64,000 bases of DNA from Escherichia coli. GTDB lineage: Bacteria > Pseudomonadota > Gammaproteobacteria > Enterobacterales > Enterobacteriaceae. The notes under the pieces are model-generated. The model was not told the origin of the DNA. It worked only from the letters and a program-made list of their open reading frames with translations, and ran no database searches. Each line of letters begins with the position of its first letter. The first letter of the stretch is position 1. Location of the stretch: NCBI RefSeq assembly GCF_011045215.1, contig NZ_CP049201.1. The stretch is one strand, 5' to 3'. Shown piece by piece: positions 34,951-35,597 of the stretch. The translations under genes were made by a program, and so were the position numbers.

Positions 34951-35271
34951 TTACCCGATCTCGATGGAAGTTATTGAGTGATCTCCTTTCATGAAAATAC
35001 GCACCTCCTTCTCGCTCCTGAAAGATGGACAGTTTTGTATTCTTCGTTCATATTCACAGGTAACCTGCCCCAGAATATCCTCCGGCGGTGTCAGCCACTT
35101 ATTCCTGAGCAATACACTGGTTGATGAATGGCAGCAGGCTATTTCAGCAATAATTTCATGTAATATCTCCGGCCTGAATTTCTTCAGTTCATTGTGATGT
35201 TCCCGGGTAAAACCATGTTCATCGAACAAAAGCTGCCATATCATTGATATACTTCCTTTATTCATCATCAA
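34951..35271 (-). CDS. Hypothetical protein, 3'-truncated by IS insertion (reading frame runs into the IS terminal repeat)
   Basis: Track ORF; the last 13 codons (MKGDHSITSIEIG*) are encoded by the IS3-type repeat at 34961-34993. Confidence 0.35.
   Translation of the reverse strand: MMMNKGSISMIWQLLFDEHGFTREHHNELKKFRPEILHEIIAEIACCHSSTSVLLRNKWLTPPEDILGQVTCEYERRIQNCPSFRSEKEVRIFMKGDHSITSIEIG
34961..34993 (-). repeat. Isolated inverted copy of the IS3-family left terminal repeat
   Basis: Reverse complement reads TGCGTATTTTCATGAAAGGAGATCACTCAATAAC, identical to 27411-27444. Confidence 0.7.
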
Positions 35272-35597
35272 TACCTGTTATCTGAATATCTACAGGTCAA
35301 TATACCTTTTCTGAATACCTCTCCGGACGGGCTGGCAATCCCCATTCGCCTCAGCGTGGCATCTGCAGCTTTTACCACTTCGCTGATATCCAGCTTTTCA
35401 GGTAGCGGCGGGGACGATATCTGCGTCAGGCAATAATTCCTGCGTAACAACAACCACTCCCGTTGTACTTCTGTACATTCAAAATTGCCCATAACAAATA
35501 GCCAGCGGGCAGAAGCTCTGCGCCAGTAACCTGCAGCCTCCAGTTTCTGTGCAACCGCGTCTTCCACAACCTCCGGGGTTCTCTTTTTCCTACTCAA
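35268..35597 (-). CDS. PerC-family-like transcriptional activator (109 aa)
   Basis: Track ORF; GYWRRASARWLFVM...QREWLLLRRNYCLTQI matches the PerC/Pch-type G-WRRA--RW motif as I remember it. Confidence 0.55.
   Translation of the reverse strand: MSRKKRTPEVVEDAVAQKLEAAGYWRRASARWLFVMGNFECTEVQREWLLLRRNYCLTQISSPPLPEKLDISEVVKAADATLRRMGIASPSGEVFRKGILTCRYSDNRY

Follow-up and report, generated by a model that had tools for sequence, protein, structure and literature searches.

The described activators of LEE1 in the PerC family are PerC itself, which sits in the perABC operon of the EPEC plasmid pMAR2, and PchA, PchB, and PchC, which are carried as morons in EHEC lambdoid prophages. PchA activates LEE1 only where H-NS/StpA/Hha silencing exists and lowers H-NS occupancy, and H-NS was not co-precipitated with PchA by Fukui et al. 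(PMC4764244). Only the group 1 genes pchA/B/C are required for full ler and espA expression and for adherence, and PchD, the group 2 homologue, has little effect on LEE, both according to PMC6265319. Plasmid-expressed pchD gave no clear curli phenotype, with slightly and variably reduced biofilm binding (PMC6265319). Among PerC-like proteins of E. coli phage-inducible chromosomal islands (PICIs), EcCIMP1_025 represses LEE1, and related proteins have no effect on it (PMC11773190). Since members of the family may activate, repress, or leave LEE1 unaffected, membership in the family does not predict ler activation. The ANR family (AraC negative regulators such as Aar and Rnr, which bind H-NS and AraC-type proteins) also consists of small helical proteins of horizontally acquired DNA; binding to H-NS and a change in silencing were described for its archetype, Aar (PMC5570504).

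Gene order can be taken from E. coli O157:H7 Sakai. There, in SpLE1, an element described as phage-like and located beside serX, the series runs from a HecB-like gene through the helicase pseudogene ECs_1383, ibrA, ECs_1387, pchD (ECs_1388), and ECs_1389 to, further on, cah; PchD is also encoded in OI-43 and OI-48 of EDL933. Sakai ibrA encodes a PAPS-reductase-like protein and ECs_1387 an ibrB-like protein with a ParB N-terminal domain. The same gene run occurs in E. coli SFE8 and ECL27977, where the helicase is intact at 893 aa, and the order helicase, ibrA, ibrB, pchD, and ECs1389 is found in loci L003 and L004. Linkage to ibrAB was seen only in the PchD-type loci among the PerC-homologue loci examined; distant homologues (≤56% identity) have contexts unrelated to ibrAB, for example beside a BigA autotransporter and PapB. 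Adherence to epithelial cells induced the neighboring genes ibrB, perC, and hyp3 together in two STEC strains (PMC7649339, Table 4), which fits co-transcription from upstream. The ancestral run from the helicase gene to the ECs1389-like gene, which lies on one strand, was probably co-transcribed; an operon is probable from the overlapping stop and start codons together with the published co-regulation.

The 64,000-nt stretch of E. coli DNA analyzed here (contig NZ_CP049201.1; hereafter, the window) can be read against this background. We consider it probable, at roughly 80%, that the window carries an intact pchD allele in its usual place within an island of the SpLE1/OI-43 type at tRNA-Ser(GGA), that the surrounding module was eroded by three events, and that the gene product likely acts by modulating H-NS. 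The features on which the comparison relies are as follows.

29613..30248, minus strand: helix-turn-helix gene, 211 aa (Pfam HTH_23, HTH_8), the last gene of the C5-type module
30282..30524, minus strand: DUF465-like gene, 80 aa, overlapping at its start with the split gene's stop (Pfam DUF465 under the cut-off, E 1.3e-4)
30521..30923, minus strand: 3′ part of the ECs1389-like gene, from in silico IS excision
30919..30923: CCTCC, right copy of the 5-bp ISEc12 target-site duplication, read directly
30924..35003, minus strand: ISEc12 (IS21 family), with istA at 31770..33311 and istB at 31009..31758, interrupted by a nested IS
33430..34919, plus strand: IS4-family element of 1490 bp, transposase at 33497..34912, nested between the ISEc12 left end and istA
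34951..35003, minus strand: IS-encoded tail of 16 residues plus stop, in the ISEc12 left inverted repeat, 100% identical to the ISEc12 end in L003
35004..35008: CCTCC, left copy of the 5-bp ISEc12 target-site duplication, read directly
35004..35268, minus strand: first 89 codons (5′ part) of the ECs1389-like gene, beginning with an ATG at 35268 that overlaps the pchD stop (TGATG)
35004..35658: blastn match (88-95%) to intact loci, covering the downstream gene 5′ part, pchD, a spacer, and the last ibrB bases
35268..35597, minus strand: pchD-type PerC-family gene, 109 aa from a TTG at 35597, open reading frame intact
35602..35739, minus strand: ibrB 3′-end remnant (ParB-N-terminal-domain gene), about 140 bp, not AT-rich, lacking about 68 bp internally
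35647..35739: blastn match to an internal ibrB piece, with about 68 bp missing between it and the preceding match
35740..36129: 390-bp orphan segment, 33% GC, without match, standing where ibrA, its upstream region, and the bulk of ibrB would be
36130..36348: helicase 3′ flank, where homology to SpLE1-type loci resumes at about 76% identity
36349..39030, minus strand: SF1 helicase gene, 893 aa, with a C-terminal DUF2726 (Pfam AAA_11, AAA_12, DUF2726), intact and upstream of the module

The interval 34951..35597 is taken up by two minus-strand open reading frames, the larger of which had been described in the earlier note as a 109-aa protein with a PerC-type motif. That description was borne out: the product of 35268..35597 contains AAGYWRRASARW, which corresponds to the G-x-[WY]-RRA-x-x-RW core (the G-YWRRASARW motif), and this core is invariant or nearly so in an alignment of 54 PerC-family members. 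The Pfam profile PF06069 (PerC transcriptional activator) matches the protein with an E-value of 1e-32 and 112.7 bits, against a gathering threshold of 22.6 bits, with residues 11-98 aligned to profile positions 2-87 of 90; a lack of such similarity was what the earlier note had named as its refutation. Nine residues of the core (A16, L19, E20, G23, R26, R27, A28, R31, and W32) are invariant in comparison with EPEC PerC and Sakai PchA, PchD, and PchE, and in the 54-member family alignment each of the nine is either invariant or conserved at 90% or more. With 99-109 aa, depending on the start, the protein also falls within the family size of about 90-110 aa. As judged from motif and profile, the assignment to the PerC family is far beyond chance.

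A BLASTP comparison with PerC and Pch proteins had also been proposed, and it upheld the family while shifting the subgroup. With references taken from annotated genomes (Sakai pchD, ECs_1388; pchA, ECs_1091; pchE, ECs_1588; perC of EPEC pMAR2), the protein is 87.5% identical to Sakai PchD (ECs1388), 39.5% to the group 3 protein PchE, 27.6% to the group 1 protein PchA, and 23% to EPEC PerC; the values for PchA and PerC place it outside group 1 Pch and PerC, and it is far nearer to ECs1388 than to PchA or PchE, as expected for the PchD (group 2 pch) subgroup. What it shares with PerC and PchA/B/C is the Pfam family, a similar size, and the N-terminal core A-x-x-LE-x-x-G-x-[WY]-RRA-x-x-RW, whereas the plasmid and prophage settings of those genes are unlike its own. 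Higher identities were found to the “PerC family” protein of E. coli C5 (WP_063610263.1; 98%) and to P0001 from a Logan assembly (96%), both of which share its long C-terminus and the downstream genes for a 222-aa protein, DUF465, and HTH. The longer C-terminal tail, ending in …GILTCRYSDNRY as opposed to …GTPVC in Sakai PchD, overlaps the start of the next gene. By identity and gene order, 35268..35597 is a pchD allele, a “group 2” PerC homologue. The gene is thus already known, annotated in RefSeq as a PerC family regulator, and the finding is real but ordinary.

The ATG annotated as the start in Sakai is absent from this allele, in which Ala replaces Met, so that a TTG or GTG start is needed. 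An alternative to the TTG is the GTG at 35567, which would yield 99 aa and whose equivalent is used by RefSeq for the C5 copy. The N-terminal extension SRKK(R/S)TPEVVED is open in all compared loci, with TTG at the start position in the window, C5, L003, and L009, and it is kept at the protein level in three distant homologues (P0010, P0033, and P0049). Because of this, the 109-aa form appears at least as likely as the 99-aa form, although the start codon is uncertain. The AF2 model of the protein (pLDDT, 88.7) is helical, and its best fold matches lack a helix-turn-helix; a PDB sequence search with the PerC profile returned nothing significant (best E 0.045). When the window was compared pairwise with six homologous loci, dN/dS was 0.31-0.44 for pchD and 0.37-0.66 for its downstream neighbor, values that show moderate constraint on both genes during their evolution.

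The wider setting is that of a chromosomal island. Window positions 1..20000 match E. coli chromosomes at 95-97% and bear trxB, cydDC, and cah; a tRNA-Ser(GGA) gene occupies 8107..8194, flanked by cydDC/trxB toward the chromosome, cah falls within the island, and the window beyond the chromosomal flank is island DNA. The gene run is collinear with those of Sakai, SFE8, and ECL27977, and pchD is therefore in its normal place. As in Sakai, the gene is positioned downstream of the helicase gene and between ibrB-like and ECs1389-like sequences, in the same type of island beside the tRNA-Ser(GGA) gene, and the order helicase, ibrB remnant, pchD, and ECs1389-like gene is preserved on one strand, with ibrA deleted. 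In contrast to the Sakai locus, the window is without ibrA and ibrB, and the downstream gene is split by an IS. The membership of the gene, as the third, in an ibrA-ibrB-pchD-ECs1389 module, whose upstream half is deleted, was overlooked in the earlier note. The upstream neighbor had been called a helicase-nuclease gene; it encodes a helicase with AAA_11, AAA_12, and DUF2726 domains and gives partial PADLOC matches to MkoA/MkoC.

The proposal that the region is a prophage remnant held only in a restricted sense. The window is collinear with SpLE1, which carries the Sakai label “prophage-like element,” but no phage structural or lysis gene was found among the open reading frames examined over about 25 kb around the locus (21 to 45 kb). 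Their products are IS transposases, one protein each of the EAL, AraC-family, HTH, and Ail/Lom types, two helicases, an ImpA_N-VasL fusion (a T6SS remnant), and adhesin and CDI proteins. Lom-type genes occur in lambdoid phages too, and the PHROG matches of PerC say no more than that phages, too, carry members of the family. Judged from this gene content, the locus is an integrative “prophage-like” island of the SpLE1/OI-43 type and not a prophage remnant.

Downstream of pchD, the second reading frame (34951..35271, minus strand; 106 aa) is a chimera of 89 native codons followed by 16 IS-encoded residues. Its product is colinear to residue 89 with proteins of 214-222 aa from C5, Sakai (ECs_1389), and L004 and then diverges, and the break in homology coincides with the left end of ISEc12 at 35003. 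The neighbor thus does read into an IS end, namely the ISEc12 left inverted repeat, as had been noticed from the sequence; the term “IS-truncated,” in contrast, was correct for the junction and wrong for the fate of the gene, which is split, with its 3′ part retained at 30521..30923. When 30924..35008 was deleted in silico, a 220-aa reading frame resulted, 93% identical to the 222-aa C5 protein over the full length and 73% identical to ECs_1389, so that a simple insertion must have interrupted the gene. Truncation with loss of the 3′ half was rejected, as that half is present 4.08 kb away. The order split gene, DUF465, and HTH matches the C5 annotation and the Logan contig L009. The neighbor protein matched nothing in Pfam, PHROGs, PADLOC, or NCBIfam, and its AF2 model, built from a six-sequence alignment (pLDDT, 49.7), is too poor for a fold search and only suggests an all-helical protein.

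The two mobile elements are well defined. The window matches ISEc12 copies whose istA and istB are annotated in RefSeq at 99.8-100% identity. Read directly, both terminal repeats begin with TGCGTATT, one at 30924 and the opposite-strand one at 35003; together with the 5-bp duplication and the reading frame restored upon excision, these inverted repeats identify an ISEc12 insertion. An assignment of CCTCC to the IS itself was rejected, since it is a direct and not an inverted repeat and the ISEc12 match in L003 stops exactly at 35003. The nested element belongs to the IS4 family by its transposase (NCBIfam transpos_IS4_3, E 1.5e-103; 347 bits against a cut-off of 160 bits; Pfam Tnp_DNA_bind, Dimer_Tnp_Tn5, and DDE_Tnp_1, which are Tn5-type domains), by its inverted repeats CATA(T/C)CCTTACCCA, and by a 9-bp duplication, CGATGTTAT, at 33421..33429 and 34920..34928, which equals bases 21399-21407 of L003. 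Copies 100% identical to it are present in three E. coli genomes, C5 included. The order of insertion is clear, with ISEc12 first and the IS4-family element later. Both ISs keep their target duplications, and the locus offers a clean, ordered series of mobile-element insertions.

Upstream of pchD, 751 bp separate the start at 35597 from the helicase stop at 36349. This interval had been described as about 750 bp of AT-rich DNA with no open reading frame of 60 aa or more. The length and the lack of a plausible gene were confirmed, and GC content falls to 33-35% over 35700..36300; however, the first 140 bp or so, the ibrB remnant, are not AT-rich, and one reading frame exceeds the stated size, a 61-aa antisense frame at 35549..35734 that is the only one of at least 60 aa in the gap and has no family match. 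No Pfam match was obtained for the small reading frames of the gap (51, 52, and 61 aa), and no Rfam family was found in 34800..36500 in a scan with an E-value threshold. By blastn, the ibrB remnant matches ibrB of L002-L005 at 86-92% in two pieces, with L004 bases 4145-4212 missing. Where homology resumes, the first 225 bp (36130..36354) are about 76% identical to SpLE1-type loci, whereas the helicase gene and flank together reach 96%.

Between these blocks lies the 390-bp segment, which in comparison with L004 stands for 1944 bp that held ibrA together with 271 bp before it and the greater part of ibrB. Low-stringency blastn against L001-L005 and the remainder of the window returned nothing for it, nor did distant-mode BLAST against 5426 complete E. 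coli genomes, plasmids, and phages, and one exact 28-mer from it was absent from GTDB representative genomes.

These observations add up to three events that have eroded the module around an unbroken pchD. One is a deletion or replacement, by which ibrA, its upstream region, and the bulk of ibrB were lost and 390 bp of AT-rich DNA unrelated to them came to stand in their place. Another is the clean insertion of ISEc12 into codon 89 of the downstream ECs1389-like gene, and the third is the later insertion of the IS4-family element into ISEc12. The IS parts pchD, and any promoter that precedes it, from what follows in the module, namely the split gene's 3′ part, DUF465, and HTH. Erosion of the module has precedents: it decays often, as the Sakai helicase orthologue ECs_1383 and the ibrAB copies of C5 are pseudogenes. 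The C5 and L009 loci differ from the window in having an OLD-family ATPase gene upstream in place of the helicase gene and a neighbor gene without an IS, and in C5, ibrAB persist as frameshifted fragments. In C5, L009, and the window alike, the pchD cassette is retained while ibrAB decays.

Whether the gene is still expressed is a separate matter. Promoter-like sites in the region were no commoner than in shuffled sequences, with no convincing sigma-70-like promoter just upstream of pchD, and on the minus strand only one candidate was found, at 36184..36157, with a score of 9/12. A terminator scan found no terminator-like site between the helicase gene and pchD, and as both are on the same strand, read-through is possible. 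Transcripts of pchD, if any, would then have to come from the helicase gene by read-through or from a promoter within the new 390-bp segment, and pchD may be silent here. This raises the possibility that pchD is a relic, neither expressed nor useful since its partners and promoter were lost, whose reading frame is open only for want of elapsed time. The replacement of 1944 bp upstream, among them the region before ibrA, the splitting of the downstream gene by two nested ISs, the lack of a good promoter-like site near pchD, and the pseudogenes among the Sakai helicase and C5 ibrAB copies all point in this direction. Against it, the pair formed by pchD and its neighbor is intact in C5 and L009 although ibrAB is fragmentary or absent there, so that the pair may not need ibrAB; a dN/dS of about 0.36 indicates past constraint, and the possible read-through would leave the gene a source of transcripts. 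We hold a silent relic to be possible, if on balance somewhat unlikely. The repeated keeping of pchD and its downstream partner amid ibrAB loss provides a small lead on PchD function.

As to that function, the role in activating ler-type regulators that the earlier note implied found no support once the subgroup was assigned. In its favor, PerC-family membership is clear, all family-invariant residues are present, and PerC and PchA/B/C do activate LEE1. Identity to those proven activators, however, is 23-28% compared with 87.5% to PchD, for which PMC6265319 gives little LEE effect; the PICI PerC-like proteins either repress LEE1 or leave it unaffected (PMC11773190), and nothing in the 64-kb window points to LEE in this strain. 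A PerC/Pch-type activator turning on ler-like virulence regulators in this strain is thus very improbable, and “PerC-like” should not be taken to mean “LEE activator” for a gene of the PchD subgroup. A negative regulator resembling ANR proteins, which would damp expression through contact with AraC-family activators and/or H-NS in the manner of Aar and EcCIMP1_025, has a different footing. The NCBIfam model ANR_neg_reg (NF033650) gave sub-threshold matches to 50 of the 54 PerC-family members (best E 5e-07), with the profile resemblance lying over residues 16-60; the helical model without helix-turn-helix among its best fold matches, the LEE1 repression by a PerC-family protein and the binding of H-NS by Aar (PMC11773190, PMC5570504), and an AraC-family gene in the same island (25834..26475) are also in keeping with it. 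The window protein itself, however, reaches only 14.4 bits (E 0.026) against a curated cut-off of 32 bits and so falls outside the ANR family, whose proteins are shorter than PchD (the ANR profile spans 54 positions), and over-expression of PchD brought no clear curli phenotype and only the slight, variable drop in biofilm binding (PMC6265319). That PchA did not co-precipitate H-NS also makes ANR-style direct H-NS binding doubtful. We regard such a negative regulator as unlikely.

Our preferred reading takes the PchD type as a small, all-helical PerC-family protein that would modulate H-NS silencing. It builds on PchA and PerC, the only members with a studied mechanism, which lift silencing by H-NS/StpA/Hha at the AT-rich promoters of horizontally acquired DNA. 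At targets other than LEE1, proteins of the PchD type would likewise modulate nucleoprotein complexes of the H-NS type formed on acquired AT-rich DNA. This is most likely, and our best guess, by analogy with relatives that are only 23-28% identical. A bolder version, which we consider quite unlikely, would make PchD-type proteins ANR-like H-NS/AraC modulators encoded in a self-contained cassette of pchD, the ECs1389-like gene, DUF465, and HTH that is independent of ibrAB; the orphan pchD would then tune neighboring AT-rich genes, such as those for defense helicases, CDI toxins, and adhesins, with the 390-bp segment serving as a new promoter. Beyond correct annotation as pchD, the locus matters little.

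Sub-threshold matches to the NCBIfam model for ANR, the AraC negative regulator family whose archetype is Aar, were obtained for 50 of the 54 proteins in the PerC-family alignment, the best of these sub-threshold matches having an E value of 5e-07. In the protein encoded by the pchD-type gene of the window (35268..35597, -), the part that resembles ANR is the following.

35418..35552: residues 16-60, ANR-resembling part of the PerC-family protein

PerC and ANR, both families of small regulators of virulence, may be homologous; the resemblance receives a passing mention in one paper.

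The more distant PerC homologues (loci L010-L012 and L013; 52-56% identical) occupy quite different genomic contexts, one being flanked by genes for a BigA-type autotransporter and a PapB-family fimbrial regulator and another being a member of a tandem PerC gene pair. Among the loci examined, linkage to ibrAB was observed only in PchD-type loci. In the window, ibrA and most of ibrB were replaced by a 390-bp segment of 33% GC (35740..36129), for which no match was found in complete E. coli genomes, plasmids, phages, Rfam, or the rest of the window. The segment contains a promoter-like site, directed at the helicase gene's 3′ end.

35885..35912, +: strong promoter-like site (TTTACA-16-TATAAT, 11/12)

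Downstream of pchD, the 3′ part of the split ECs1389-like gene (30521..30923, -) is missing two codons that all five full-length homologues have (…AEQ-ER-VWG… to …AEQVWG…), an in-frame deletion specific to this strain. ISEc12, which splits this gene, carries a nested element.

33430..34919: IS4-family element (Tn5-like domains), located 84 bp inside the left end of ISEc12
33421..33429 and 34920..34928: 9-bp duplication CGATGTTAT of this element

The IS4-family element is rare: a search of 5426 complete E. coli genomes gave any match in 79 and a 100% identical copy in three.

Three further genes of the island are of note.

36349..39030, -: intact 893-aa helicase (AAA_11, AAA_12, C-terminal DUF2726)
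39657..40874, -: 405-aa ImpA_N-VasL fusion ORF in a 55% GC patch
41300..43126, -: 608-aa NERD and UvrD-type helicase

The 893-aa helicase showed partial PADLOC matches to Mokosh MkoA/MkoC and is intact; its orthologue in O157:H7 Sakai, ECs_1383, is annotated as a pseudogene. The 608-aa protein is a second defence-like helicase of the island, matching PADLOC candidate defence family C3a187 over nearly its full length (E 2.7e-141). The 405-aa ORF appears to be left over from a type VI secretion system, since its position in related genomes is annotated with separate, truncated T6SS pseudogenes.

The boundary between chromosome and island is marked by a tRNA gene, probably serW, the OI-43 attachment site in EDL933.

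8107..8194, +: tRNA-Ser(GGA), between chromosomal trxB, cydDC and the island
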